Source of the DNA: an uncultured Thermoleophilia bacterium
GTDB lineage: Bacteria; Actinomycetota; Thermoleophilia; UBA2241
Direction of reading: 5' to 3'
NCBI GenBank assembly: GCA_963702475.1
Contig: CAVPCT010000005.1
Coordinates: 960,001-1,024,000, forward strand
Length of the DNA: 64,000 nucleotides
The notes beneath the pieces were generated by a model. The model searched no databases. It was given only the letters and a program-made list of their open reading frames with translations, and had not been told where the DNA came from. Positions within the stretch are counted from its first letter, which is position 1, and each line of letters begins with the position of its first letter. Position numbers and translations under genes: made by a program. Positions 10,022 to 27,386 of the stretch are shown in pieces.

Positions 10022-10242
10022 GTCGGCCTCCCCCTCGACGCGCCTCGGCTCGGGTGAGCCGCGCGTGAGTGCTACCTGCCCGGAGGACCGACGCCAGGCG
10101 TCGGCGGCCGTTCGTGCCTCCGCGGCGACAGTCCTTGCTTGCAGGCGACTCCCCTGGCCGCCGAACACCGGGGGATGGCCCTCCGAGGTAAACGGGTAGC
10201 CTGCGGACAGCAGACCCACCGACCACACTCCGGGAGAGCACC

Positions 10243-12225
10243 ATGAGCGAACCACCGCGTGCGATCGACACCGCGCTCTTCGACGCGGACACCGCCGCGT
10301 CCGACGACTTCTACCGTCATGTGAACGGCGGCTGGATCGACGTCAACCCCGTCCCGCCGGAGTACGGCTCCTGGGGCGCCGGTCAGATCGTCCACGCCCG
10401 TAACCAGGAGGTGCTGCAACAGCTGCTGAAGGACGCGGCGGCGCGCACGGAGCCCCGCGACTCGGCCGGCCAGATGGTGGGCGACTACTTCGCCGCCGCC
10501 ATGGACGAGGCGGCGATCGCCGCCGCCGGGGTGGAGCCGCTGGCGCCGTACCTGGCGCGCATCGACCGCGCCTCGTCCGTCGCCGACGTGCGCGACATCC
10601 TGCGCGACCTGCAGCGCTGCGGGGTGGACCCGCTCCACTCGCTGGGCATCGCGCCCGACTTCGAGGATCCGGGCGCGTACCTCGTCTACGTCGGCCAGGG
10701 CGGTCTGGGTCTCCCCGAGCGCGACTACTACACGCGCGACGACGAGCAGTCGGCCAAGCTTCGCGAGCAGTACGTCGCCCACGTGGCCAGGCAGCTGGGC
10801 AGCCTCGGCGACACCGGCGCGCACACGCACGACACCGGCGTGCGCGCGCACGAGGCCGCCGCGCGCATCCTCGCCTTCGAGACGCGCCTGGCCGAAGCGT
10901 CGTACACCGCCGCACAGCTGCGCGACGTGCAGCTCACCCTGAACCGGTACGACGTGGCCGCGCTGGACGAGCTCATGCCGGCCTTCGGCCTGCGCGGGTA
11001 CGTCGTGGACCTCGGCGTCACGTCGGACACGGTCAGCGTGGACAACCCGGGCTTCTTCCGGGCCCTCGACGCCACCCTCACCGAGACGCCGATCGAGACG
11101 CTGAGGGACTACCTCCGCTGGCACGTGATCAGGGCGTCCGCGCCGGCCCTCGCGCCCACGTTCGAAGACGAGGCGTTCGACTTCTACGGCCGCACGCTCG
11201 GCGGGCAGAAGGAGATGCAGCCCCGCTGGAAGCGCGTGCTCAACGCCGCCTCCGTGGACGTCGGCGAGCTGGTGGCGCAGCTGTACGTCAAGGCCGCGTT
11301 CTCGGAGGAGGCCAAGAAGCGCTGCGAGGAGATGGTCGACCACCTGCTGTCGGCGATGGGGCAGGCGATCCGGAGCGCCGGGTGGATGACGGAGACCACC
11401 CGGGCGGAGGCTCTCCGCAAGCTCGAGGGCTTCACCTACAAGATCGGCTTTCCGGACGAGTGGCGCGATTACACCGGTCTCGTCATCGAGCGGGCGACCT
11501 ACGTCGAGAACCGCATGCGCTGTGCGTCGTTCGAGTTCGCCCGGCAGATGGGCCGGCTCGGCGAACCGGTCGACAGGGGCGAGTGGGCCATGCCCGCCCA
11601 CGTGGTGAACGCCTACTACCACCCGCTGCTGAACGAGATCGTCTTCCCCGCCGGCATCCTGCAGCCGCCGTTCTTCTCCACGGACGCCGACGACGCCGTG
11701 AACTACGGCGCCATCGGCGCGGTCATCGGGCACGAGATCACGCATGGGTTCGACGACCAGGGCAGCCACTTCGATGCGCGCGGCCAGCTGCGCGATTGGT
11801 GGACCGAGGAGGATCGCAGCGAGTTCATGCGGCGCGCGCAGGTGCTCGTGGACCAGTTCGACGAGTACGCCGTCTTCGACGGCCTGCACGTGAACGGCCG
11901 CCTCACGCTGGGCGAGAACATCGCCGACTTCGGCGGCCTGAAGATCGCCTACGCCGCCCTGCGCGAGGCGCTCGCCGGCAGAGACACCGCGCCCATCGAC
12001 GGCTTCAGCCCCGAGCAGCGTTTCTTCCTCTCGTGGGCGACGGTGTGGCGCACGAGCTACACGGACGAGTACCTGCGGCTGATCGTCACCACGGACCCGC
12101 ACTCGCCGGCCCGGGCGCGCGTGAACGGTCCGCTGGCCAACCTCCCGGCGTTCGCCGCGGCGTTCGCGATCGCCCACGGGTCGCCCATGGTGCGCGGCGA
12201 GGAGGAGCGCGCGCTCATCTGGTGA
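10243..12225 (+). CDS. M13 family zinc metalloendopeptidase (PepO/Zmp1-like)
   Basis: DDFYRHVNG, VNAYY, HEITH, GENIAD, DPHSP. Confidence 0.95.
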   Translation: MSEPPRAIDTALFDADTAASDDFYRHVNGGWIDVNPVPPEYGSWGAGQIVHARNQEVLQQLLKDAAARTEPRDSAGQMVGDYFAAAMDEAAIAAAGVEPLAPYLARIDRASSVADVRDILRDLQRCGVDPLHSLGIAPDFEDPGAYLVYVGQGGLGLPERDYYTRDDEQSAKLREQYVAHVARQLGSLGDTGAHTHDTGVRAHEAAARILAFETRLAEASYTAAQLRDVQLTLNRYDVAALDELMPAFGLRGYVVDLGVTSDTVSVDNPGFFRALDATLTETPIETLRDYLRWHVIRASAPALAPTFEDEAFDFYGRTLGGQKEMQPRWKRVLNAASVDVGELVAQLYVKAAFSEEAKKRCEEMVDHLLSAMGQAIRSAGWMTETTRAEALRKLEGFTYKIGFPDEWRDYTGLVIERATYVENRMRCASFEFARQMGRLGEPVDRGEWAMPAHVVNAYYHPLLNEIVFPAGILQPPFFSTDADDAVNYGAIGAVIGHEITHGFDDQGSHFDARGQLRDWWTEEDRSEFMRRAQVLVDQFDEYAVFDGLHVNGRLTLGENIADFGGLKIAYAALREALAGRDTAPIDGFSPEQRFFLSWATVWRTSYTDEYLRLIVTTDPHSPARARVNGPLANLPAFAAAFAIAHGSPMVRGEEERALIW

Positions 12226-12286
12226 ACGCCGGCGTCACGTCCACGCCGGGTGGCTCACGGACCTCGAAGCCAGAAAGGAGGCATGC

Positions 12287-13438
12287 TTGCCGTACGGATA
12301 CGCCTTCGCTGTGCTCATCGTCGCGTGGGTCACCGCATGGGCGGTCGCACCCCACCGTCCGCGGGGGCCTCGCCCCTTCGCGCCGAGCTTCTGGTTCAGC
12401 GTCGCAGTCAACGAGCTGCCCTTCCTGGCCATCGCGTGGCTGGTCGTGAACACGCTGACGGCCGCAGTCGACGGGTCGCTCGATTCGCCGGGTGGGTACG
12501 CGGTCGTCGGTGTGGCAGCACTCACTTGTGGTGGATTGGCCGTGATCGCGCGGCGAGGTTGGAACGCGGGAGCCGAGGTGCCGCGAGCGCTGCACGACCA
12601 GGGCATCGCACCGCCGGATCCGATCCGGGACAGCGCCGGACGCCCGTCGCTGGTCCGCCTGATCGTGTGGCCGTTCAGCGTCCGGCCGCGCGGCGTGCGT
12701 CGAGTCAGGAACATCGACTACGGCGAGCACAGCCCGGCGACCCGGCTGGATCTCTACCTCCCCAAGCCCCGGGCGGGCCCGGCCCCGGTGCTCGTCTACT
12801 TCCACGGAGGGGGGTTCTACGGTGGGAGCAAGTCCTGGGGGGCCAGGCCGCTGTTCTATCGACTCGCGGCATCCGGGTGGGTCTGTGCCAGTGCGGACTA
12901 CCGGCTCGCGCCGCGAGCGTCGTATGCCGACGCGCTGGCCGACGCACGCCAAGCTGTCGAGTGGGTCCGTCAGCACGCCGCCGAGCACGGAGCCGATCCT
13001 GAGCGCATGTTCCTCGCGGGCAGCTCCGCCGGTGCTCATCTGGCGTCGGTCCTGGCGCTGGTCGGCCACGACTCGACGACCACCGGGCGGCCGACGCCGG
13101 ACGTGCGCGGCGTGGTGACGCTCTACGGGTACTACGGGCGGGTCAGCAATCCGCACGGCCCGAGCTCGCCCTTCGATCTGATCGGGCCGCAGGCACCGCC
13201 GTTTCTCGTCGTGCACGGCGACAACGACTCATTGATCCCGGTCGAGACGGCTCGTGACTTTGCGCGGCGGCTCGCGGCCGCGTCCGCCGGACCCACGGCG
13301 TTCGTGGAGCTCGGCGGCGCGGAGCACTCCTTCGGCCTGTTCGACTCGATCCGGTTCCGCGCCGTGATCGACGGGGTCGAGGCGTTCTTACGCACTATCG
13401 ACCACGACGCACGACACGACCGCCGCACTGACGACTGA
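12287..13438 (+). CDS. Membrane-anchored HSL-family esterase/lipase
   Basis: N-terminal TMs, HGGG, GSSAG, HGDND, H. Confidence 0.88.
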   Translation: MPYGYAFAVLIVAWVTAWAVAPHRPRGPRPFAPSFWFSVAVNELPFLAIAWLVVNTLTAAVDGSLDSPGGYAVVGVAALTCGGLAVIARRGWNAGAEVPRALHDQGIAPPDPIRDSAGRPSLVRLIVWPFSVRPRGVRRVRNIDYGEHSPATRLDLYLPKPRAGPAPVLVYFHGGGFYGGSKSWGARPLFYRLAASGWVCASADYRLAPRASYADALADARQAVEWVRQHAAEHGADPERMFLAGSSAGAHLASVLALVGHDSTTTGRPTPDVRGVVTLYGYYGRVSNPHGPSSPFDLIGPQAPPFLVVHGDNDSLIPVETARDFARRLAAASAGPTAFVELGGAEHSFGLFDSIRFRAVIDGVEAFLRTIDHDARHDRRTDD

Positions 13439-13499
13439 CGGATGGCGCAGCGCGCCCGGGCGGCGACTTCATCCGTGCTGTCGGCACCAGCCCCCGCCG

Positions 13500-14093
13500 T
13501 CAGCGCCCGAGCTGACTCCCCCCATCGCCGCCGCCGTCTCCACGTACAGGGATCAGGATCTCGTTGCGTCGCAGGAACCAGGGGGTGAACGGCGGGTTGT
13601 AGCGAGCCCAGACCGGGTCGCCGGCGATGAGCAGTCCTCTGCTGCGCACCCACGATTCCAGCTTCATCTTGTGAGTGAGGTAGCTGCTCTCGGTCCAGAG
13701 GCCGGAGTACCGCATCGCGGCCATCTGCCGAGCTGGGACCTGTCGCACTGTGACCTGCGGATCCGCAGGCTCGGGAAGAGTCTCCAGAGCATAGGAGGCC
13801 GGCATCGTGAAACTGACGACCCACCTGTCTTGAGCGGGTTGCTGCCCCACCGGGGCCGTCATCGCGATCTTCTCGCCCGTCGGCTCCTGGGAGACCGGCG
13901 CCGTCATCGCCACCTTGTGCCGCGACCGGTTGCCGCCTGAGATATACCGAAAGAGCCGGCTGAATGCCTGGTTGCCGGCCCGTTCGAAGGACCCGGCGAC
14001 GACGGTCTCGGCTACGACATGGGGAGCGTAGTCGCGGATCTCGAACTCGCCGTCCCTGTGCACCACGGTGTAGGTTGCCTCTTCGATCGCCAC
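13500..14093 (-). CDS. SOUL family heme-binding protein
   Basis: FEIRDY, LFRYISG, IAMTAPV, ARYNPPFTPWFLRRNEI. Confidence 0.92.
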   Translation of the reverse strand: MAIEEATYTVVHRDGEFEIRDYAPHVVAETVVAGSFERAGNQAFSRLFRYISGGNRSRHKVAMTAPVSQEPTGEKIAMTAPVGQQPAQDRWVVSFTMPASYALETLPEPADPQVTVRQVPARQMAAMRYSGLWTESSYLTHKMKLESWVRSRGLLIAGDPVWARYNPPFTPWFLRRNEILIPVRGDGGGDGGSQLGR

Positions 14094-14237
14094 GCGCGAG
14101 TCCTACCCAGCGGCTGCGGGAACCAGTCGTCAGGCGACGCGGGGAGGCCGCAGGACTGCGGGTCCGTGGGCGCCTTGCCCGACCGACGGGCCGAGGCCTG
14201 ACGAGCCCCCGTCCGGCGGTGGCGCAGGAGGCCGGCG

Positions 14238-14774
14238 TCAGACGACAGGCGCCGGCTCTGGAGTCGACTCGGCAAGCTCTGGACGGTCCGCGCGGATGCT
14301 GCCCAGCACATCATCCAGAAAGGCAACGGCCTCGACCTCGCCGAGATCGCGAGAGTACATGAACTCGCTGGAGAGGATCCGTTTGGCCTGGGTGAACACC
14401 TGCTTCTCGCCGACGGGAAGATCCTTGGCGGCGTTGCGGATGGCGAGGTTGCGCACCACTTCGGCGACCTCGAAGATGTCGCCGGTCTTGAGCTTGTCGC
14501 GGTTGTGCCGGTAGCGATGGCTCCAGCCCTTGGGCATGGCGGTGGGCTCGCCGCGCAGCACCTCGAGCACCTCGTCGACGACGTCGGCCGCGACGACCCT
14601 GCGCAGACCCGCGCGATCGGCGTTCTCCACGGGCACCATGACGGTCATGCTGTTGTGAAGGATCTGGATCGTGAGGTAGTCGCGCTGCCTGCCGAGGACC
14701 TCTTTGGGCTCGATCCTCGTGATCTTGCCGGCACCGTGATGCGGGCAGACGACCTTGTCCCCTACTGAATACAT
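14238..14774 (-). CDS. carD: CarD family RNA polymerase-binding transcription factor
   Basis: MYSVGDKVVCPHHGAG, W..RY...DKLKTGDIFEVAEVVRNL. Confidence 0.9.
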   Translation of the reverse strand: MYSVGDKVVCPHHGAGKITRIEPKEVLGRQRDYLTIQILHNSMTVMVPVENADRAGLRRVVAADVVDEVLEVLRGEPTAMPKGWSHRYRHNRDKLKTGDIFEVAEVVRNLAIRNAAKDLPVGEKQVFTQAKRILSSEFMYSRDLGEVEAVAFLDDVLGSIRADRPELAESTPEPAPVV

Positions 14775-14981
14775 CGTCTCAACTCCCTTGCTGCCTGCTG
14801 GGCGCCCTAGGCTCGGCCTGCGATGGCACGCCCTCATGACAGAGGGAGGCGACGACCCCCCGCACGCGGTGTGGTGAAGGGCACGTGCGACGGTCTTCTG
14901 TGTGTCATTGTAGTGGAAACGTGCGCGTGATGCATGCTGAGCCGACGCTCGGGCGGCCGTCGGCGACGGAGCCCGGCCGCG

Positions 14982-15830
14982 CTACCGCGCCCCGCCAGGT
15001 CCGCCGGCGTCGCGCGGCCGGCTCGCCTCCAAGGCCCCCACGAAGGCCACAAGGTCGGCGGCGACGCGCGCTGCGTCTTCCCAGTAGAAGGCATGGCCGC
15101 CGCCCTCGTAGACCAGAAGCCGTGCACCTCGGATGCCCCTCGCGAGGGCTTCTTGCTCGCTTCGCGGCAGGATGGCGTCCCGGTCGCCCCAGACCACCAG
15201 CGTCGGCGCAGTGATGTCCCCGACCTGGAACGAGAGATCGTCCTCGAGTAAGGCCGCCATCGTCGCCTTCCACACGAACGCCGGCGCCTTCAGGCTCTCT
15301 TGGACCAAGGCCTCGACCTCGGCCTCCGGCAAGGGCCGCACGACGATCGACGCGATGAAGTCGCGCACGAAGCCGGGGTCGATGGGATCCTCCAGCAGCG
15401 AGAGCGTCGAGTCCCACGCCTCGCGCACGGCGGGCTTGTCGCTCAGCCTCAGAGGTGAGCCGAGGAGCACGAGGCCGAGGATGCGCTCGGGGCGATCAAG
15501 GGCAAGCCGCAAGGCGACCTGCCCGCCGCTGGAGGCCCCGACGACGACGGCCGCCTCGATGCGCAGGGCGTCCATGGCCTCCGCGAGGTCAGCGGCGAAG
15601 TCGGCCGACCGATAGCCGGACTCCGGGCGGCTGGCGTCGCCGTGACCGCGCAGCGTGGGGGCGACGGCGTGGACGGAGTCGGGCAGGTGCGCGAGCAGCG
15701 CCTCAAAGGCGCGCCCCGAGTCGCCCACGGCGTGCACGAGCAGGACCGTGCGCGCCGTCGGATCGCCCTGCTCGATGTAGGGCATCCGCACCCCGTTGGC
15801 CAACTCGACCGCGGCCAAGGTGCGCCTCAT
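14982..15830 (-). CDS. Alpha/beta hydrolase
   Basis: ATG at 15830; LRGHG, GASSG, WGDRD, GGH. Confidence 0.88.
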   Translation of the reverse strand: MRRTLAAVELANGVRMPYIEQGDPTARTVLLVHAVGDSGRAFEALLAHLPDSVHAVAPTLRGHGDASRPESGYRSADFAADLAEAMDALRIEAAVVVGASSGGQVALRLALDRPERILGLVLLGSPLRLSDKPAVREAWDSTLSLLEDPIDPGFVRDFIASIVVRPLPEAEVEALVQESLKAPAFVWKATMAALLEDDLSFQVGDITAPTLVVWGDRDAILPRSEQEALARGIRGARLLVYEGGGHAFYWEDAARVAADLVAFVGALEASRPRDAGGPGGAR

Positions 15831-16132
15831 GGTGACCGCCTCGCTCGACACGGACGTATAGACGCTGTCCAGTCTTCCCCGCTCGGCCCTGAAGCCTGCA
15901 TGCCTGAAGCAGGTCCTGGAGCGAACGGCGGGGGGCATCGTGATCTCTCCGGCTCCGGCGGCGTCCCCCCGCAGGGGCAGGCCGCCGGCGCCCGCGTCCC
16001 TCGCACGGTCGAGCCCAGGTTCCCCCCGCCGGGAGACGACCGGCGGCCGGGGCGGCCGTAGACTCCCCCCAGGTCGACGCCTGCGCGCGGGACGCTGGAG
16101 CGACATGACGGCGAATGCATCGGGGAGGCACC

Positions 16133-17105
16133 GTGAAGGCGGCAGTGCACACTGACTACGGCTCACCAGAGGTCCTGAAGACTCGAGGACGTCGACACGC
16201 CGGTCGTCAAGGACGACGAGGTGCTCGTGCGCGTGCGCGCCGCCGCCGTGAACCCTCCCGACTGGGCCGGCGTCCACGGCGTGCCGTACATCGTCCGCCT
16301 GGCCTTCGGGCTGCGCCGGCCGAAGCTCTGCATCCGCGGCACCGACATGGCGGGGGTCGTCGCTGCCGTGGGCACGAACGTGACGAGTCTGAGCGTCGGG
16401 GACGAGGTCTTCGGCCGCGGCGTCGGCACGTTCGCCGAGTACGCCGTGGCTCCGGAGGAACTCCTCGCACCCAAGCCGGCCGGCATCACGTTCGAGCAGG
16501 CGGCGGGCGTTCCGATGTCCGGTCTCACCGCCCTCCAGGCGCTGCGTGATTCGGGCGGCATCCGGCCGGGGCAGAAGGTCCTGATCGTCGGCGCAGGAGG
16601 AGGGGTCGGCACCTTCGCGGTGCAGATCGCCAAGTCGTTCGGCGCCGAGGTGACCGGCGTGTGCAGCGCGTCGAAGCTGGATCTCGTGCGGGCGATCGGC
16701 GCCGACCACGTCATCGACTACGCGGTGGAGGACTTCACCACAGGCGAGAAGCGCTTCGACCTCGTGCTCGACAACGTGCTGCAGCACTCGCTGTCCGAGC
16801 TTCTGCGCGTGCTGAACCGGGGCGGGACGCTCGTGCCCAACGGCGGCCAGTTCCACAAGCGCTGGTTCGCCAGTACCGGGGTCCTCCTCATCAAGGCGCC
16901 GCTGCTCTCGCTGGTCGTGCCGCAGCGGATCCGCGTCTGCCACGAGCACCCGGGGCAGAGCGACCTGCTGGTCCTGAAGGAGCTCGTGGAATCCGGCAAG
17001 CTGACGCCGGTCGTCGGCAGGGAGTACCCCTTGAGCCGGGTCCGCGCGGCGATCTCCTCCTTCGGGGAGGGGCACGCCGAGGGCAAGATCGTCATCACCA
17101 TGTGA
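16133..17105 (+). CDS. NAD(P)-dependent MDR-family oxidoreductase; +1 frameshift near 16181
   Basis: VKAAVHTDYGSPEVLK / LEDVDTP..VNPPDW, GAGGGVG, GKIVI. Confidence 0.88.
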
Positions 17106-17130
17106 GACGGGGCATCCTTCCCCGCGTGTG

Positions 17131-17470
17131 TCAGTCGCTCGCGCCCTGGACCGACCTGTCCCCTTGCGTGAGATGAGCGATGAGGATGTACACGCTCACC
17201 ATCAAGACCCAGGCCGGGAGGATCATCACGACCCAGATAGACTGCGACACGACGAACAGCAGGACCAGGGCGACACCGTAGGTCGGCAGTGCCATCCGCC
17301 GAGGCATCACGCTGGTGCGTAGCCACAGCGTAGCCTGGGAGATCAGGAAGTCCGCCGCCATCCGCAGCGCGTGGGCACGGCGATGAACCACAGGAAGAAC
17401 AGCCCGGCGAACGGTATGAGGGCGATCGCGAACTTGAAGCGCCCCGCGCCGGTGTCGAGCCATGCGCCGG
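17131..17470 (-). pseudogene. Internally deleted membrane protein remnant
   Basis: Two hydrophobic pieces in different frames (LIPFAGLFFLWFIAV; ALRMAADFLIS..PAWVLMVSVYIL); no start. Confidence 0.5.
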
Positions 17471-17725
17471 ATCTCGCGTAGCACCTCTTGGATCGCCGCG
17501 TCGAGCTCCGCGTCCGGCATGCCGTCGAGGCCGCTGCGACCACGACCCTGGGATCGTGGCGACCGGCCGGCGTGGTGCGGAGCTCCGCCTCTCTACGCTC
17601 CACGAGCGCCTTGCTGACCAGCTCGCGCGAGCGTCGCTCGCGGCGCAGTCCTCCGCCGGGTACGCCGCCCCGCGCGGCCCGGCACCTGCCCGCGAGCCAT
17701 CGCGTCGCCCGTCCTGGGCGCCGCT

Positions 17726-19215
<1,490 letters not shown>

Positions 19216-19304
19216 GACGGACCTCTCTTCGGTCGACAGCAGTGCACCGACCCGGCGCGCGCCTGAGTCACGCCGACTGTATAGAGGTGATCAGCGGGCC
19301 ACAA

Positions 19305-19655
19305 TGCCACAGCAGCGCTTGTACTTCCTGCCGCTGCCGCGGGGCACGGGTCGTTGCGGCCGGTCGTGCGGGCCTCCGCGGCGAGGATCGCCATGACCTC
19401 GCGCGCCTCGCCGCCGCGGGAGAGCACGTCGGCCGGGCGCATGCGCCGCTCGGTGTGCACGAAGGACTCCTTGAGCCCACCGCACAGCCAGTTCAGCCCG
19501 GGCTCGCCACCGGGCGTCACCAGGATGCGGTTCTCGGGGCACTCGCCGTGGCAGGCGAAGAGGAACTCGCAGGCGCGACAGAACGCCGGCAGCGTGTCCT
19601 GCTTGGCCCGCCCGAAGGCGCGCTGCCGCTCGGAGCGCACCAGCTCGCCGACCGA
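19305..19655 (-). pseudogene. 3' remnant of an anaerobic sulfatase maturase (SPASM end plus SEC-C)
   Basis: Near-identical to 39305-39660: GELVRSERQ.AFGRAKQ.TLPAFCRAC..CHGECP..GRNDPCP.GSG.KYKRCCG. Confidence 0.85.
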
Positions 19656-19805
19656 CCGGGCTGCGGGCGTGGAGTCGATCATCTGGGAGGCATGGGGCTC
19701 AGCAGACATCGTCCGGCGCACATCGACTGGGCGGACGGCTGAGGAAGCCCCGAGCGCTATCGACGCCCCGGAGAGCTCGAAGTGCGCCGGCATCCGGCGG
19801 CTCCT

Positions 19806-20855
19806 TCAGCGCGCCGCCGGCGGGAAGATCGCCTCGTTCTCGTCCAGGTCCCCGTCCACCTTCGGCGCGCCAGACACCACGAGCACCGCGCCGGCGAACG
19901 TGATCAGCACGCCGGCGACGAGCTGGACGGTCGGGTGCAACCCGGTGAGGACGATGGAGAAGACGATCGCCCACACGGCGTAGAGCGAGTTGATCGGCAT
20001 GGCGCGGCTGGCGCCCACGAGGTGGTTGGCGGCGTAGTACGTGAGGTAGGAGGCGGCGCCGGCTACGGCGGCGCCCAGGACGAGCCACAGGCTGGTGCTC
20101 CGGAACGCGGCGGCGAAGACGCCGAGACCGCCGGCCAGCGGCAGCACGACGACGAGGTAGATCACAGCCGAGGTCGCCATGCGCAGCGTGCCGGCCACCA
20201 CCGGTTCCACGGCCTTCATCGCATGGATGGCCAGGACCCCCTCGACCCCCCAACCCACGGTGGCGACGGCGGCGAGGCCGATGCCGAGGTAGAAGTGCGG
20301 CATGTCACCGGCGGGGGGCGTGTACGTGGCGATCACGGCGCCCGTGACGGTCACGGCGATGCCCAGCCAGCCGCGACGCGAGACGTGCTCGCGCAGGAAG
20401 ATACGGGAGAGGACTGCGCCGACGGCGGGATACGTGGCGCTGAGCGCCAGGGCGTACGCCGCGCCCGCGTACTTGATGCCGAACAGATAGCCCGACATGG
20501 CGATCGGGCCGCCGATGACGGCGGCGGCGCAGAGGATCAGCCCCTGTCTGGTGGCGAGGCTGCGCGGCAGCTGGCGCAAGCGCCCGGTGGCCGCGTTGAA
20601 GGCCACCATCCAGCCGGTCGCGAGGACGTCGTGCAGGGCGGCCGCGGCGAGAGGAGCGACCAGCGCGGCCGCGCCCAGGAACGGCGCCATCGCGAGAGCC
20701 ACACCGAGCACGACGCCGTCGGCTCCCCAGCACACGCCCGAGAGCAGCGCCCAGGCGAGGCCCGAGCGGCGATAGGTGTGCGGCACCGCCGTCGAGGTCG
20801 CGCCGGCGGGCGAGGCGGCGCCCGCGGGCGACTCCGCCTGGTCGACGACGGACAT
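19806..20855 (-). CDS. DMT/EamA transporter, LicB (choline permease)-like
   Basis: About 10 TMs; LLSGVCWG, HD, GGPIAM, SATYPA, WGVEGVL, SYLTYY, INSLYAVW match recalled LicB motifs. The ATG overlaps the activase stop (TGATG). Confidence 0.8.
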   Translation of the reverse strand: MSVVDQAESPAGAASPAGATSTAVPHTYRRSGLAWALLSGVCWGADGVVLGVALAMAPFLGAAALVAPLAAAALHDVLATGWMVAFNAATGRLRQLPRSLATRQGLILCAAAVIGGPIAMSGYLFGIKYAGAAYALALSATYPAVGAVLSRIFLREHVSRRGWLGIAVTVTGAVIATYTPPAGDMPHFYLGIGLAAVATVGWGVEGVLAIHAMKAVEPVVAGTLRMATSAVIYLVVVLPLAGGLGVFAAAFRSTSLWLVLGAAVAGAASYLTYYAANHLVGASRAMPINSLYAVWAIVFSIVLTGLHPTVQLVAGVLITFAGAVLVVSGAPKVDGDLDENEAIFPPAAR

Positions 20856-21904
20856 CACCCGAGCCCCTGTACGGCGCGGCACTCGACGCCGGCGGCGCGG
20901 CGGGTCACGTCCGCCGCCACGGCGGCGAGCCGTTCGGGCTCAGGGCGCTCCAGCGCCGGCGGCGCCAGGTCCAGGGCGGCGTACTTGTGCGCGCCGAGCG
21001 CGTGGCAGGGCAGCAGGTCGACGCGGCGGATGCGCGGGTGGCCGGCGACGAACGCCGCGAGCGCCTCCAAGCTGTCGCGGTCGTCGTTCGCCCCCGGGAC
21101 CACGGGTACGCGGACCGTCACGTCGGCGCCAGTCTCAAGCAGCCTCTCGAGGTTCTCGATGATCGACTCGTTGCCCAGGCCGGTCAGCTCCTCGTGCCTC
21201 TTCGAGTCGAGCGCTTTGAGGTCGTAGAGGAAGAGGTCGGTGAGCTGCGCCGCCTCGCGCAGGTCGTCCCAGCGCGCCTGCCCGCAGGTCTCCACGGCGG
21301 TGTGGTAGCCCCAGCGGCGGCAGCGCCGCAGGCACTCGAGCAGGAAGGCGGGCTGCGCGAGCGGCTCCCCGCCGGAGAAGGTGACGCCCCCGCCGGACCG
21401 CCGGAAGAAGGGGGCGTCACGCCGGACCTCGGCCATGAGCCCATCGGCGGTCACCTCGCGGCCCATGAGGCGCCGCGCCCCGCGCGAGCACGCGGCGGCG
21501 CACACGCCGCAGGCGGCGCACAGTCGGCGGTCGGTGCGCACGCGGCCTTCGTCCGTGCGCACGGCGCCGCGTGGGCAGGCCTCGACGCAGCGGCCGCAGC
21601 CGGCGCAGAGGCTCTCGAACCAGGCGATCTGCGGACCCGGCTGCTGCGACTCCGGGTTGGCGCACCAGACGCAGTGGAGCGGGCAGCCCTTGAAGAACAC
21701 GACGGTGCGGATGCCGGGGCCGTCGTGCAGCGAGAACCGCTGCACGTCGAAGACCCGGCCGCGCGTTCCCGGCGCGGCCGCATCCGCCGCGCCGGCGTCC
21801 GCCGCGCGGGACTCGGCCGCGCCCGTCACACCCGGGTCTTCCACGCGCGACCTCCCGTCGATTCCCGCCGCAGGCTCGGAGTGGAGCGGTGGCCCGAAAG
21901 GCAC
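20855..21904 (-). CDS. Glycyl radical enzyme activating enzyme (radical SAM with ferredoxin insert)
   Basis: HDGPGIRTVVFFKGCPLHCVWCANPE, two CxxCxxCxxxC motifs, GGVTFSGGEP. Confidence 0.95.
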   Translation of the reverse strand: MPFGPPLHSEPAAGIDGRSRVEDPGVTGAAESRAADAGAADAAAPGTRGRVFDVQRFSLHDGPGIRTVVFFKGCPLHCVWCANPESQQPGPQIAWFESLCAGCGRCVEACPRGAVRTDEGRVRTDRRLCAACGVCAAACSRGARRLMGREVTADGLMAEVRRDAPFFRRSGGGVTFSGGEPLAQPAFLLECLRRCRRWGYHTAVETCGQARWDDLREAAQLTDLFLYDLKALDSKRHEELTGLGNESIIENLERLLETGADVTVRVPVVPGANDDRDSLEALAAFVAGHPRIRRVDLLPCHALGAHKYAALDLAPPALERPEPERLAAVAADVTRRAAGVECRAVQGLG

Positions 21905-21911
21905 ACCGCTC

Positions 21912-24324
21912 TCACAGCGCGGCGTTCGCCGTGCGCGAGATGATGTCGTTCTGGATGTCCTCGTGCAGTTCGACGAAGAACGCGGAGTAGCCGGCGACGC
22001 GCACCAGCAGCGAGCGGTACTCGTCGGGCTCGGCCTGCGCGCAGCGCAGCGTCTCCTCCTTCACCACGTTGAACTGGATGTGGTAGATGGGCAGGTCGAG
22101 GAAGCCGCGCAGGTAGGCGGCGAAGCGCTGCAGGCCCTCGTCACCGGCGACGACCTGCGGCTCGAACTTGACGTTGAGCAGCGTGCCGCCGTCGAGGTCC
22201 TCGTGCTGGAACTTGCCGACCGAGCGCAGCACGGCCGTCGGCCCGAGCCGGTCCGTCCCCTGGTTCGGCGAGACGCCGTCCGCCAGGGGCCTGCCGGCCT
22301 TGCGGCCGCTGGGCAGCGCCGCGACCGTGAGGCCCTGCGGCACGTTGGAGGAGACCGGGTACCACGACGGCATCATCGTGCCGCCGGTGAGCGTCGCGTA
22401 CTTGTCGTGCTCGGTCACGACGAGGTGCGCGAAGTGGCGCACGTACCGGTCCACCTCGTCGTCGTCGTTGCCGTACTTGGGCGCCGCGAGGCAGAGGTCG
22501 CGCACCTCCTCGTAGCCCTCGAAGTCGGCGCGCAGCGCCTCCCGCAGCTCGTCCATCGAGAGGCGCTGCTCGTCGTACACGAGCTTCTTGACGGCAGCCA
22601 GCGAGTTGACCCCGTCGGCGAGGCCGATGCCGAGCGTGCCCGGGCCGCGCTTGTAGCGGGCGCCGCCGCGCAGCAGATCGGCGCCGTTGTCGATGCAGTC
22701 GAGCATCAGCGCCGACGCCAGCGGGCACGGCAGCAGCTCGCGGTGCAGCGCCTCGGTCACGTGCCCCTGGATGGCGATGTGGCGGAGCTGCTCGGCGAGC
22801 TGCGCCATCACCGCGGCCTCGAACTCCTCGAAGGCGGCGAGCTCGTTCGGGTCGCCGGTCTCGAGGCCCAGCTTGCGCCCACTCAGCAGGTGTTCGCCGT
22901 TGAACAGCGCGAACTCGACCGCCGAGCCGAAGTTGTAGTGCCCGTAGTCGCTCCACTGGTGCAGCTTGCCGGGCAGGTTGGGCTCGACGCAGCCGACGAG
23001 ACACCAGTCACGCGCCTCCTCGGTGGTCACGCCCTTGCGCAGAAGCGCCTTGATCCCGACCTCGTCGTTGTGGATGGCCGGGAAGCCGGTGCCCAGGCGC
23101 GAGAGCTCGCAGACCTTGAGCAGGAACTCCTCCGGGCAGTTGCGGTGCAGGCGCACGGCCAGCGAGGGCTGGTTGAGGCGCACGTCCATCGACGCCTGAA
23201 GCATCATGTACGAGACGTCGTTGGTGGCGTCCTCGCCGTTCGCCTTCACCCCGCCCGCGGTCACGTTCTGGAACGCCGTGTAGCCGGCGAAGTACTGCGA
23301 ACAGTTGGTGTTGAGGATCCAGCACTGCTCGGCCAGCTTGACCCACAGACACTCGAGCAGCTCCTGCGCGTGGTCGTGCGTGAGCCGGCCGGCGGCCACA
23401 TCGGCTGTGTAGTACGGCTCGAGGTACTGGTCCATGCGGTTGGGCGAGTACGACGGCGCGTTCAGCTCCATCATCAGGCTCATCTGCGCGAACCAGACCA
23501 GCTGCAACGCCTCGTGGAAGGTGCGCGGCGGCTCCTCGGCGATCCACTCGCAGGCCGCCGCGACCCGCTCGAGCTCGGCGGCGCGCTCCGGCGGCGACAT
23601 CGCCGCCAGCTCCCGCGCCGCCGCCGCGTGCCGCCGCGCCAGGATGCCCATCGCCTCGCAGCTGATGACGACGGCCTCGAGGAAGTAGCGCTTGTCGTCG
23701 CTCGCCGGGTCGGCGACGTCGAGCGCCGCCAGCCGCTCTTCGGCCCAGCGGCGCACCCCGCCCCACCCCTTCGGCAGCAGGATCTCGCCGTAGCCGAGGG
23801 CGATCTCTCCCGGGCCCGACTCGGTCTTGATCTCGACGTCGATCACGCCGGTCTCGTAGCCGAGCGCCCGCGTGTCGGCCGGCACGCGCTTCAGCCAGTG
23901 CTCGATGACCGTCTTGCCCTTCCAGTACGGGTGGACGCTTCTCGCGGAAGAGCGCCTTCTGCTCCTCGTCCACGAGGTACGGGTCCTGCGGCCGGTCGCT
24001 CAGCGTGTCGAGCTCCTTGGCGAACCAGTAGTTGGACATCTCCGGCCCGAGGACGCCGGTGCGCGGTCTGCGCCCGGCGTTACCCACGATGAGCTCGTCG
24101 TCCTGGATGAGGATGGTCTTGGTCTCGCAGGTGCGCTTCAGGCCTTTGGCCCTGCGGACGACCATGGGTTCGCCCTCGGTCTCCTGGAAGACCTCGGTGT
24201 AGGCGAGCGCGCGCTCGATGCACACTGACGGCATGTGCGTGAAGTACTGCGTGCGCAGGCGCGCGATGCGCGGGGACAGGCCCTCGTCCGCCCGCGCGCC
24301 GGCCTCCTGAAGCATGGTCGCCAT
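21912..24324 (-). CDS. Glycyl radical enzyme (CutC/diol dehydratase-related, substrate unknown); +1 frameshift near 23938
   Basis: About 803 aa when joined; IERA..ELIVG, GCVEP thiyl loop, RVAGYSAFF glycyl motif. Confidence 0.92.
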
Positions 24325-24357
24325 GTCCCCACCTTTCCGGAGCGCGTCCGTCCCACG

Positions 24358-24406
24358 ACTCACCCGACCGGGTGAGTATAGCAGCGACTCACCCGAACGG
24401 GTAAGC
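24358..24406. promoter_or_regulatory. Tandem palindromic TetR operators between the GRE and tetR genes
   Basis: ACTCACCCG-AC-CGGGTGAGT (24358-24377) and ACTCACCCG-AA-CGGGTAAGC (24387-24406). Confidence 0.8.
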
Positions 24407-24445
24407 TTCTGCGCGTATCGTGACCCGGACCTCAGGAGTGGCGAG

Positions 24446-25129
24446 GTGGCGAGAGCAGCCCCGGTCGACGCGAAACCTCAGACTCGCGACGCCCGCGCGC
24501 CCGCACAGCAGCAGGCGGCGCGTGTCCCGGCGTCGCGCCGGCTCCACCCCACCGCAAAGCGGATCCTCGCCGCCGCCAAGCGCCTCCTCACCGAGCGCGG
24601 CTACCGGGGTCTGACGCTGCAGGCGATCGCGACCGAGTCGGGCGTCAACAAGGCAGGGGTCTGGTACTACTTCGGCGGCAAGGAGCAGCTCGTGCTCGCG
24701 CTGCTGGAGGAGGTCGCCGTCACCGAGTCGCACCACTTCGGCATCCGGCCGGCGGCGTACGCGACGCTGGACGAGCGGGTCGACCTCATCGTGGGCAGCG
24801 CGCAGCGGGTGAAGGACCGGGTGGAGCGCTACGCCGCCTTCTACGAGCTCCTGCCCGAGGCCTCCCGCGACGCCCAGCTTCGCGAGCACCTGATGACGTA
24901 CTACCAGGGCTGGTACGCCTGGGCGGGCGAGGTGCTCACTCCCCCGGGCGCGGACGGCGCCGTACGCACCGGGACACCGACGACGGTGGGCCAGTTCGCC
25001 TCGATCCTGCTCGACGGCATCTTCATGCAGATGGTCGTCGCCGCTCCCGGCTTCGACCTCGAGGCGGCGCTGCAGGACGCGCGCCGCACGCTCAGGCACC
25101 TGCTCGACCCCGAGCCGGCGGCGACGTGA
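24446..25129 (+). CDS. TetR/AcrR family regulator (BetI-like C-terminus), divergent from the GRE operon
   Basis: ILAAAKRLL..GY.GLTLQAIA.ESGV.KAGVWYYFGGKEQL HTH; AGGAG upstream of GTG at 24446. Confidence 0.9.
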   Translation: MARAAPVDAKPQTRDARAPAQQQAARVPASRRLHPTAKRILAAAKRLLTERGYRGLTLQAIATESGVNKAGVWYYFGGKEQLVLALLEEVAVTESHHFGIRPAAYATLDERVDLIVGSAQRVKDRVERYAAFYELLPEASRDAQLREHLMTYYQGWYAWAGEVLTPPGADGAVRTGTPTTVGQFASILLDGIFMQMVVAAPGFDLEAALQDARRTLRHLLDPEPAAT

Positions 25130-25408
25130 GGGCGACGCCGCCGGGGGCCGCAGGCCGGGGCGGCGCCGCGGGGCAGAGAGACTGGGGCAAGTACGGGCTG
25201 GGCGCCGCGGCCGCCGGCTGGGTCGTCGCCTTCCTCCCCGCGGTCGTGCCGGCGGCCATCGCGCTGTGGTGCGCCGGGTTCGTCCCGAGCCTCGTCGGCC
25301 GGCGACGCGCGCGGCGCCTACGGCCTCGCCGGTCTGGTCCTCGCCTCACTTGGCCTCGTCTGGGTCGTCGCCGGCATCGCCCTCGGGCTCCTGTTCTTCC
25401 AGGTGTGA
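25126..25408 (+). CDS. Possible small membrane protein (frameshifted)
   Basis: Hydrophobic segments in two frames ending LGLLFFQV*. Confidence 0.3.
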
Positions 25409-25535
25409 GCGTGGCCAACGGTGCGTGTGTTGCCGCATGTTCTGAGTGGGGTAGCCCTCTCAACATAAGCGGCACGGGCCGGCTCGAGCGTTGGGGCTCG
25501 AGCAGCGACCTGGCCTATGAATACAGGAGGGCATC

Positions 25536-26282
25536 ATGAGCTTCACCAGAAAGGTCTCCCTGATCACGGGCGTGGCCTTCCTCATCACCTTCGCCGCCTC
25601 GATCCCGGCGGTGTTCTACTTCTACGCACCGGTGCTGGACAACGCCGACTACATCCTCGGCGCCGGCGCCGACACGCGGATCGGATGGGGCGCGGTCCTC
25701 GAGGTCATCCTCGTGGTCGCCAACATCGCCACCGCCGTGGCGCTGTACCCGGTCGTCAAGCGGCAGAACGAGGGCCTCGCCCTCGGCTACGTGGCGGCTC
25801 GTACCTTCGAGTCCACCATGATCGCCGTCGGCATCATCGCCACGCTTGCCGTGGTGACGCTCCGGCAGGAAGTTGCGGGAGCCGTCGACGCCGCCGCTTC
25901 CGTCGCTCTTGGGCAGTCGCTCGTCGCGGTCCACGACTGGACGTTCCTGCTCGGACCGGGCATGGTGGGCATCTGGAACGGCCTGCTGCTGGGCTATCTG
26001 ATGTACCGCTCCGAGCTCGTGCCGAAGGGCATGGCCGTGCTAGGGATGGTTGCCGGCACCCTGCTGATCGCTTCGGCGATTCCGATCCTGCTAGGTGTGT
26101 ACGAAGCAGGGTCCGCGCCGCAGGTCATCGCGACGGCCCCGGAATTCGTCTGGGAACTGTTCCTGGGCATCTACCTCACGTTCAAAGGGTTCAGGGCGGC
26201 CGGTCTGCGCAAGCTCGGGTTCGAGACGGGCGAGTCCGCCTCCGCGGCCGCTTCCGTGAGCGAGCTGCGGCCGGCGGCGTGA
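25536..26282 (+). CDS. DUF4386 family membrane protein
   Basis: TGVAFLITFAASIPA, ALGYVAARTFE, YRSELVPK, FVWELFLGIYL. Confidence 0.85.
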   Translation: MSFTRKVSLITGVAFLITFAASIPAVFYFYAPVLDNADYILGAGADTRIGWGAVLEVILVVANIATAVALYPVVKRQNEGLALGYVAARTFESTMIAVGIIATLAVVTLRQEVAGAVDAAASVALGQSLVAVHDWTFLLGPGMVGIWNGLLLGYLMYRSELVPKGMAVLGMVAGTLLIASAIPILLGVYEAGSAPQVIATAPEFVWELFLGIYLTFKGFRAAGLRKLGFETGESASAAASVSELRPAA

Positions 26283-26444
26283 TGAGCGCCGCGCCTCAAG
26301 CCAAGCGGACACGAGCCTTGTCCGCCGCCTGACAAGCGGCCACTACGAGGCAGCCGGGGCCGAGGGCGACTGGGCGGCGTCCAGCACCCTCGGCCCCGGC
26401 CCACGGCACGGGCACACCGACCCTCAAGCTGGAGGGATCAGGAC

Positions 26445-27386
26445 ATGCGCGCGGTCATATGCAGAGAATACGGTCCTCCGGAGGTCCTGGAGCTCCAACA
26501 GGTAGCGAAACCTGTTCCGAAGGATCACGACGTGCTGATCAAGGTGCATGCGACGACGGCGCACCGTGGGGACGTGAGGATCCGAAGCTTCGATGTGCCT
26601 CGGGGACAACGGCTCGCGGCGCGACTGGTCCTTGGCTTCGCTCGCCCGAAGAACCCGATTCTCGGGATGGAGCTGGCCGGAGAGGTCGAGGCGGTCGGCA
26701 GGGACGTGACCCTCTTCAAGCCGGGCGACGAGGTCTTCGCCTTCACCGGTTGGGGCCTCGGTGCCTATGCCGAGTACGTCTGCTTGCCGGAGAAGCCGAG
26801 AAGGTCGGTCACGAAGGACGGGATGCTGGCGACCAAACCGGCCGGCATGACCTTCGAGGAAGCCGCCGCCGGCGCGGCGACCGGAGGAGTCACGGCCTTG
26901 CGTGTCCTCAGAAAGGCGAGCATCGCAAGCGGGCAGAAGGTCCTGATCTACGGTGCCTCTGGAAGCGTCGGCACCTACGCGATGCAACTTGCCAAGTCAT
27001 TCGGGGCGGAGGTCACGGGGGTCTGCAGTACCGCCAATCTGGATCTGGTGAGATCCCTCGGGGCCGACAGGGTGATCGACTACACGCGGCAGGACTTCAC
27101 CGAGGGCGGCGAGACCTACGACGTCGTCTTCGATGCCGTCGACAAGCTCGAGCCCTCCCGGGCCAGGAGCCCCCTGAAGAAGACGGGCGTCTACCTGAAC
27201 GTCAACAGGGACTCAGGTTCTGGAGCCGGGAGTCCCGAGGATCTTGTCTTCCTCAAGGAGCTCATCGAGAGCGGGCAGGTCCGGGCGGTCATCGACAGGC
27301 GCTACCCGCTGGAGGAGATCGTCGAGGCCCACACGTACGTCGAGAAGGGGCACAAGAAGGGACACGTGGTCGTCGCCGTGGCGTAG
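26445..27386 (+). CDS. NAD(P)-dependent MDR-family oxidoreductase
   Basis: [39 protein letters not shown]. Confidence 0.92.

Follow-up and report, generated by a model that had tools for sequence, protein, structure and literature searches.

A glycyl radical enzyme cassette without microcompartment genes in an uncultured Thermoleophilia bacterium: a candidate C–N lyase outside the CutC clade

The choline trimethylamine (TMA)-lyase CutC, together with its activase CutD (PDB: 5FAU, 5A0U and 9F3W; TIGR04394), is named in a June 2026 review as the only known glycyl radical enzyme (GRE) eliminase that cleaves a C–N bond (PMC13450708). Type II cut clusters are controlled by TetR regulators (PMC4453576). 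Here we describe a cassette at positions 19806–25129 of a 64,000-nt stretch of DNA with about 70% G+C (the window) from an uncultured Thermoleophilia bacterium. It consists of four genes: a GRE, its activase and an EamA-type transporter of the drug/metabolite transporter (DMT) class on the minus strand, and a divergent TetR-family regulator on the plus strand. The cassette shares with cut clusters an adjacent activase with two extra clusters, a LicB-like DMT importer and, as in type II, TetR control; it differs from them in having neither genes for bacterial microcompartment (BMC) shell proteins nor a CutF- or CutO-type dehydrogenase nor the long N-terminal extension of the lyase. On balance we lean slightly towards a ligand-inducible catabolic cassette built around a microcompartment-free C–N lyase that acts on choline or a closely related amino alcohol. 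Genes and domains were assigned with Pfam and NCBIfam profile searches, for which 15 open reading frames (ORFs) of the window, spanning 10192–27383, were scanned.

The GRE spans 21912–24324 (minus strand), and its coding sequence is divided between two frames with a junction near 23937–23940: an N-terminal frame of about 128 aa with a probable ATG at 24324 (23940–24324; Pfam PFL-like positions 3–116) and a C-terminal frame of about 674 aa (21912–23936; Pfam PFL-like 594 bits, Gly_radical 104 bits). Membership in the GRE superfamily follows from the matches to PF02901 (594 and 99 bits) and PF01228 (104 bits) and from the radical motif RVAGYSAFF (RVxG[FWY]), with the radical glycine codon at 21990–21992. 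The GCVEP motif (22983–22994) and the score of an intact ortholog against TIGR01774 (763 bits, cut-off 678) place the protein in the 1,2-eliminase/isomerase group. NCBIfam affiliates it only with the PFL2/glycerol-dehydratase subfamily, and it stays below all NCBIfam equivalog cut-offs. For the CutC equivalog (TIGR04394, cut-off 1050) the intact ortholog P0003 reached 730 bits and the two pieces from the window 595 and 108 bits, along a gradient that runs from a Clostridium sporogenes locus (1639.5) and a Brenneria variant (1163.5) to nearer uncharacterised relatives (974, 887 and 813). Against PDB sequences, long-form CutC scored 613, HpyG 601, Desulfovibrio alaskensis CutC 558, HpzG 545 and glycerol dehydratase 535 bits, so that CutC is the best or joint-best match (558–613 bits) at an identity of 39–42%. 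The motifs YFAGYTAF, GCVEP, QW, IKTESGPGE, QWSDYGH, WYPVS and NAPS, pointed out in a sequence-only reading of this DNA that preceded the present analysis, are all present. The exact signature QWSDYGH plus SWYPVSS recurs in 14 of 123 rows, each at least 84% identical to P0003, and the pocket motifs are identical in all 14 of these subfamily rows; a 90%-identical relative comes from a Thermoleophilia metagenome-assembled genome.

The active site was mapped by alignment to PDB 5FAY, where the chain index plus 31 gives the D. alaskensis numbering, as checked on C489, E491, Y208F and D216. Among the 13 CutC pocket residues listed in PMC12451663, F389, F395, C489 and E491 are kept, two are changed conservatively (D216→E and T502→S) and the other seven carry substitutions (Y208→I, H209→K, T334→P, M487→V, Y506→H, L698→Y and I700→V). 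Outside this list, S503 is replaced by Asp, and Q499 and W500 are kept. The alignment thus confirmed the T502S, S503D and Y506H changes and the altered Y208/D216 region that had been pointed out in the sequence-only reading. At the positions of the trimethylammonium pocket (Y208, D216, T334, T502, Y506, L698 and I700) the window protein reads I, E, P, S, H, Y and V. The respective codons on the minus strand lie at 23805–23807 (E216), 22938–22952 (S502, D503 and H506) and 22359–22361 (Y698), and those of the loop at 22989–22991 (C489) and 22983–22985 (E491). The features shared with CutC are the GRE fold, GCVEP, Q499–W500, F389, F395 and, at position 216, an acidic side chain. A survey filter for CutC consists of F395, C489 and E491 (PMC4453576); since all three are conserved, it would wrongly admit the window GRE.

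Two phylogenetic reconstructions, a FastTree tree of 135 non-redundant relatives and an IQ-TREE tree of 49 sequences rooted on glycerol-dehydratase-like sequences, agreed with each other. Canonical CutC is monophyletic with a support of 100, has a long stem of 0.56 and is sister to the uncharacterised proteins P0056 and P0063. The window ortholog clusters in a different clade of 12 rows (support 100) and hence outside the monophyletic CutC clade. The relation of HpyG, HpzG, IslA, HypD and YbiW to the window GRE was judged from bit scores and not from the trees; the scored members of the two clades near the window GRE included none with an HpyG ortholog-level score. With sub-equivalog scores, a separate clade in two trees and best PDB scores split between CutC and HpyG, the evidence supports the earlier proposal of an uncharacterised B12-independent eliminase, namely a CxE-type 1,2-eliminase that belongs neither to CutC nor to any other GRE of known function. 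CutC, for its part, is nested in a large radiation in which most proteins have GE, QW[ST]D and YPVS, so that these motifs represent the common state and CutC the derived form. The description of the active site as a hybrid of CutC and diol dehydratases thus holds at the level of single residues, but the combination GE/QWSD/YPVS is the common state of the radiation that yielded CutC.

Four of the 120 relatives listed (P0009, P0037, P0039 and P0114) carry the JGI name choline trimethylamine-lyase. Their motifs are of the non-CutC type, GE/QWSD in P0009, P0037 and P0114 and AE/LWSE in P0039, and none of the radiation relatives scored against the CutC model, a set to which these four did not belong, reached its cut-off. 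Within CutC, a subgroup at Brenneria, Citrobacter and metagenome loci (L033, L063, L118 and L119) reads TIKTQNGGGD and QWTSVGYTT, with Y208 and H209 replaced, and may have an altered specificity; its one member scored against the CutC model, at locus L033, passes with 1163 bits. The loci L098, L100, L101 and L020 each hold two diverged GRE paralogs of the radiation; one activase was detected in each of the first three and two in L020. The paralogs of L098 and L100 often stand beside a short-chain dehydrogenase.

The transporter gene (19806–20882, minus strand; Pfam EamA) has alternative starts at GTG 20882 and ATG 20855. Over nearly its whole length the product is homologous to the choline permease LicB of Streptococcus pneumoniae (7B0K; E 1.5e-30 over residues 39–336), which bears out the likeness noticed from motifs; the other listed PDB match is an unrelated short-chain dehydrogenase (E 0.0079). 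According to PMC8890701, W17, Y109, W167, Y233 and Y255 of LicB form the trimethylammonium box, Y236 and N252 lie at the hydroxyl end, and E170 and R191 are essential charged residues implicated in proton coupling. All nine residues are identical in the HMMER alignment of the window protein to 7B0K. Overall identity to LicB is low, and the settings differ, the window importer standing in a predicted catabolic cassette and LicB in a phosphocholine-decoration (lic) operon. On the question, raised earlier, of whether GRE homologs co-occur with LicB-like genes, tblastn detected such genes at 37 of the 67 loci that carry a CutC signature and measure 9 kb or more, at none of six loci with a glycerol or propanediol dehydratase signature and at one of 39 others. 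When the transporter tree was rooted on a second EamA type, the window importer and an 80%-identical protein from locus L097 nested, on a long branch, among the cut-associated transporters. The order GRE–activase–transporter is repeated in L097, where it is complete, and in L016 and L096, where contig ends cut both, and a transporter is present at four of the eight orthologous loci whose sequence continues past the downstream end of the activase gene. The second EamA type, unrelated to the first, stands beside the cassette at L096:6826-7740 and L013:1466-2311; it lacks the LicB residues, reading YQWTQLAVY and YSYVSFLAY at the nine positions, and may be a product exporter.

The activase gene (20855–21904, minus strand) encodes a radical SAM glycyl-radical activating enzyme that has an additional cluster domain of the ferredoxin type (Pfam Radical_SAM, Fer4_12 and Fer4). 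It scores 347 bits against TIGR02494 (cut-off 174), carries the CX3CX2C radical SAM motif as CPLHCVWC and is 73–81% identical to the activases at orthologous loci. Its stop codon overlaps the ATG of the transporter as TGATG at 20853–20857, in agreement with the translational coupling of the two genes proposed earlier. The absence of microcompartment genes from the operon, already remarked upon, extends to the genome: BMC shell genes (PF00936) were found neither in the operon nor elsewhere in the 93.8%-complete genome, and no BMC shell genes or acetaldehyde and alcohol dehydrogenase genes of the cut type were found among the 15 scanned ORFs.

In the function that we propose, TetR would hold two palindromic operators until the substrate binds to it, and the LicB-type protein would, to judge from its conserved residues, import a choline-type cation as a proton symporter. 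The activase would, as is known for its family, install the glycyl radical on the GRE. Acting as a CxE 1,2-eliminase, the GRE would then abstract a hydrogen atom from the carbinol carbon (C1) by the thiyl radical of the GCVEP cysteine, the loop glutamate would take the hydroxyl proton, and the neighbouring positively charged nitrogen group would leave. The products would be a free amine and, probably, an aldehyde, which for a 2-hydroxyethyl amine would be acetaldehyde. Binding would rely on a pocket set other than that of CutC, in which Asp216 gives way to Glu, Thr502-Ser503 to Ser-Asp, Tyr506 to His and Leu698 to Tyr. The aldehyde could be oxidised by aldehyde:ferredoxin oxidoreductases (AORs) of the host without a microcompartment, and released TMA or dimethylamine (DMA) could feed pyrrolysine-dependent methyltransferases. 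In this scheme we infer the substrate class, the leaving group, the TetR ligand and the link to AORs and methyltransferases from sequence features. Choline itself is the most economical guess at the substrate, to which we would give somewhat less than an even chance. A 2-hydroxyethyl amine that is less methylated or otherwise modified, or an analogous sulfonium or arsonium compound, is a more doubtful candidate, and some other compound altogether is a substantial minority possibility. The sequence-only reading had preferred a non-choline substrate. This preference was not sustained: given the nine identical LicB residues, the nesting of the importer among those of canonical CutC loci and the methyltransferase-rich genome, choline or some other (tri/di)methylammonium alcohol is no less likely than an ethanolamine-type compound.

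Several observations weigh against the C–N lyase for choline-type compounds, and part of them would suit other chemistries. With seven pocket residues replaced and two conservatively changed, choline binding in the manner of CutC is excluded, so that an activity on choline would depend on another way of binding it. For all members of the window GRE clade the chemistry is a prediction from genes, and the genes found beside GREs vary across the radiation at large (amidase, sugar-type and NMT1-type binding proteins, PLP decarboxylase), so that clade membership by itself says little about substrate or chemistry. Beside the GRE orthologs of the genus genomes G006, G023 and G021 the transporter is absent, with an SBP_bac_5 gene in its place in G006 and an integrase gene in G023, and G005 keeps only a 39-residue remnant. 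Within the source genome, neither the AOR genes nor the methyltransferase genes are linked to the cassette. Such diverse contexts, and a transporter missing at three of eight orthologous loci and reduced to a remnant at a fourth, would be expected if the GRE were a C–O cleaving dehydratase, of the glycerol/propanediol dehydratase or HpyG-like kind, that acts on a hydroxylated amine or polyol; a nitrogen, if present, would then be a mere binding handle for the pocket Glu/Asp and the LicB-like gene a loosely associated neighbour. HpyG (8ID1), a dehydratase of N-methyl-hydroxyproline, matches the window GRE over its whole length with a score as high as that of CutC, shares the CxE loop and has a Glu (GWGE) at the position of CutC D216, but it reads GCVETN...CYTSYADYN where the window protein reads GCVEPN...QWSDYGHYN, and ILPVSGN instead of WYPVSSN; no HpyG ortholog-level score was found in the clade. 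Glycerol and propanediol dehydratases (1R8W and 5I2A) share the CxE loop and the aldehyde product. Their residues were transferred through the glycerol dehydratase ortholog at locus L026 (1020 bits to 1R8W) and our own alignment. Of H281, S282, D447 and Y640, which we take to be active-site residues of glycerol dehydratase and located on 1R8W, the last three are kept, Y640 together with P641, whereas H281 is replaced by Pro, H164 by Glu and Y339 by Phe; the full set of H164, H281, S282, D447 and Y640 is therefore not present, and both histidines that had seemed to be missing (GPGE, NAPS) are indeed replaced. The June 2026 review names H164 as the proposed proton donor to the leaving hydroxyl group in glycerol dehydratase (PMC13450708). 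These dehydratases also belong to a different major branch, used as the outgroup of the tree. Because HpyG scores like CutC and S282, D447 and Y640 are kept, we retain a C–O eliminase as a serious alternative, but consider it unlikely in view of the two lost histidines, an importer coupled translationally to the activase and recurring at four loci, and a genome whose metabolism is centred on methylated amines.

A comparably low probability is assigned to a substrate that is not choline but an amino alcohol with an N–H group (ethanolamine, N-methyl- or N,N-dimethylethanolamine or aminopropanol), which would make the GRE the first B12-independent ethanolamine-type lyase. The pocket gains hydrogen-bond acceptors and donors (Glu, Asp, His and Tyr) and loses the methyl-contact residues Y208, T334 and Y506 of CutC, EutB was not found in the own genome, and DMA methyltransferase genes are numerous. 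The importer, however, keeps the full aromatic box of LicB for trimethylammonium and has its nearest relatives beside canonical CutC genes, and direct evidence favours no particular head group. A literature search returned no glycyl radical work on ethanolamine-type amines among the 20 best matches, and searches for GREs gave only known families. That the cassette represents a second, independently evolved C–N cleaving GRE lyase, either a BMC-free TMA-lyase that converged on choline with a pocket of Glu, Asp, His and Tyr or the first such enzyme for less methylated ethanolamines, is put forward tentatively, at rather short of even confidence.

In a DNA alignment the window GRE gene has one extra base relative to two orthologs, at 23937–23940 (minus strand), which splits its frame. 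Orthologs that are 89–92% identical, in the genomes G023, G006, G005 and G021, are uninterrupted and measure 816 and 813 aa where complete, and across 54 genus genomes the other full-length matches to the CutC model scored 686–753 bits, six of them with open frames of 824–841 aa and two truncated by the end of a contig. Contigs from four public sequencing runs were aligned to the gene. All seven contigs over 23937 (four in run X1, one in X2 and two in X9) are without one base, two more (one each in X2 and X3) have a gap at 23940, and one of these contigs, 255 nt long and with just two mismatches (99% identity), is thus without the extra base. The source assembly comprises nine contigs with 93.8% completeness and 6.5% contamination, and reading frames are also split in the neighbouring sulfatase gene and in several methyltransferase genes, which give matches in two or three successive frames (e.g. 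G000:C7:37364-38577 and C5:362180-363436); the split methyltransferase genes suggest many single-base indel errors in this assembly. The extra base is probably one of these. The alternative, a real frameshift that makes the GRE of this genome only a pseudogene in a decaying cassette, would agree with the split sulfatase beside it and with an anaerobic sulfatase maturase that is reduced to its C-terminal part. It also keeps some weight because none of the public runs could be demonstrated to be the source sample (best share of sampled words 0.36). We nevertheless consider it rather improbable: the extra base is the sole lesion in 2.4 kb, the N-terminal piece is 84–89% identical to its orthologs and both halves are 84–92% identical and free of stops, the 99%-identical contig is without the base, the pocket motifs do not vary among the 14 subfamily rows, and many unrelated genes of the assembly are split alike, as expected of consensus indel errors. 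A genuine pseudogene, which would have undone the earlier proposal, was thus not shown.

The TetR-family repressor gene is bounded by the ORF limits 24314–25129 (plus strand; Pfam TetR_N 58 bits, BetI-type TetR_C_6 36 bits). Its true start lies probably well downstream of ATG 24314, near 24440–24530, since the helix-turn-helix (HTH) begins only at residue 84 and the G+C content of third codon positions climbs only past about 24500. The HTH, at about 24563–24703, is followed by the BetI-type C-terminal domain. Two operators were located by a repeat search in the intergenic region: a palindrome whose 9-nt arms match perfectly across a 2-nt spacer (24358–24377) and, 29 nt away start to start, a 90% copy of it (24385–24405). 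Gene calls and palindromes thus agree with the earlier picture of a divergent TetR with twin operators facing the GRE, activase and transporter genes. TetR genes that are 56–71% identical occupy the same divergent position in the sister genomes G005, G006 and G023, and a TetR gene was found at four of five orthologous loci that reach upstream. The operator core is found again at the corresponding intergenic position, unchanged in G005 and G006 and, in G023, in two copies that have one mismatch each, and hence in all three sister loci that include this region. In its TetR_N HTH, TetR_C_6 domain and divergent orientation with palindromic operators the regulator resembles BetI-type TetRs and those of type II cut clusters. 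It differs from BetI in falling far below the equivalog cut-off (TIGR03384, 45 bits against 201) and passes for BetI likeness only at the level of the Pfam domain TetR_C_6 (36 against 27 bits); no homologs of the window TetR at E<=1e-6 were found within the retrieved flanks of CutC-type loci. A TATACT between both operators was picked out by eye alone, and a scan of 19600–25300 for promoters and terminators found none, as expected at 70% GC.

The host looks like a pyrrolysine-using specialist for methylamines and quaternary amines. Its genome contains 75 matches to the MttB superfamily, 14 of them with exactly one in-frame TAG (e.g. loci L184–L204; contigs C2–C9), and all seven full-length DMA methyltransferase genes have one TAG. 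The pyrrolysine genes exceed their cut-offs (PylS 315 bits, PylD 209 bits); a literature search for pyrrolysine in Thermoleophilia found none. The window GRE is the only one of its type in this genome. Of the 11 AOR matches in the genome none is linked to the cassette; three AOR genes are clustered within 7 kb at G000:C5:635459-642424. In related genomes, AOR genes occur near the GRE at L096 (84% identical to P0003, with NuoF-like and Fe-S proteins), in G006 and at the 50%-identical relative L017, and an aldehyde dehydrogenase gene abuts the GRE in L099. The description of the cassette as self-contained in the sequence-only reading holds only with reservations: it carries a transporter at only half of the downstream-reaching loci and is accompanied by an AOR gene at two orthologous ones. 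A match to the cassette was found in 11 of the 54 genus genomes, about a fifth, with different flanks in each, and because of this patchy distribution it looks like a mobile accessory module. The habitats, sediment and wastewater, are those of the relatives. A phage-type integrase gene adjoins the activase in G023 (L011:7334-8218).

Directly after the stop codon of the transporter, in the same frame, lies a fragment of an anaerobic sulfatase maturase (19134–19805, minus strand), which consists only of the C-terminal SPASM part (model positions 313–385 of 412). The radical SAM half is missing; it was sought across the cassette at 25050–25560, where nothing recognisable was found. The cassette seems to have replaced this half. 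The adjacent sulfatase gene (17729–19290, minus strand) lies in two overlapping frames (Pfam Sulfatase positions 1–138 and 141–300). A choline-O-sulfate pathway through this sulfatase was considered and rejected: its two pieces score 32–41 bits where the choline-sulfatase model requires 433, only the C-terminal portion of the maturase is left, and the two genes do not recur beside orthologs of the GRE. Two zinc-dependent alcohol dehydrogenase genes (16179–17105 and 26286–27386) were likewise rejected as parts of the cassette, as they are not conserved beside orthologs.

If the proposed function is true, a second C–N cleaving lineage with a different pocket would widen the chemistry of GREs, and the cassette would show how CutC arose, since CutC, nested in an uncharacterised radiation, would be one derived twig of a much larger group of enzymes that cleave amines or alcohols. 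Surveys of TMA potential in sediment and wastewater may over-call or miss the window GRE group, because it passes the filter of F395, C489 and E491 and because four relatives bear the CutC name in JGI. A lyase that frees TMA or DMA from a 2-hydroxyethyl amine would feed the methyltransferase machinery of the host; one organism would thereby take choline-type compounds to ammonia, methyl groups and acetate, with the lyase upstream of the TMA and DMA methyltransferases. The cassette would thus link choline-type compounds to methylamine turnover outside the methanogens, in a pyrrolysine-using member of the Thermoleophilia.

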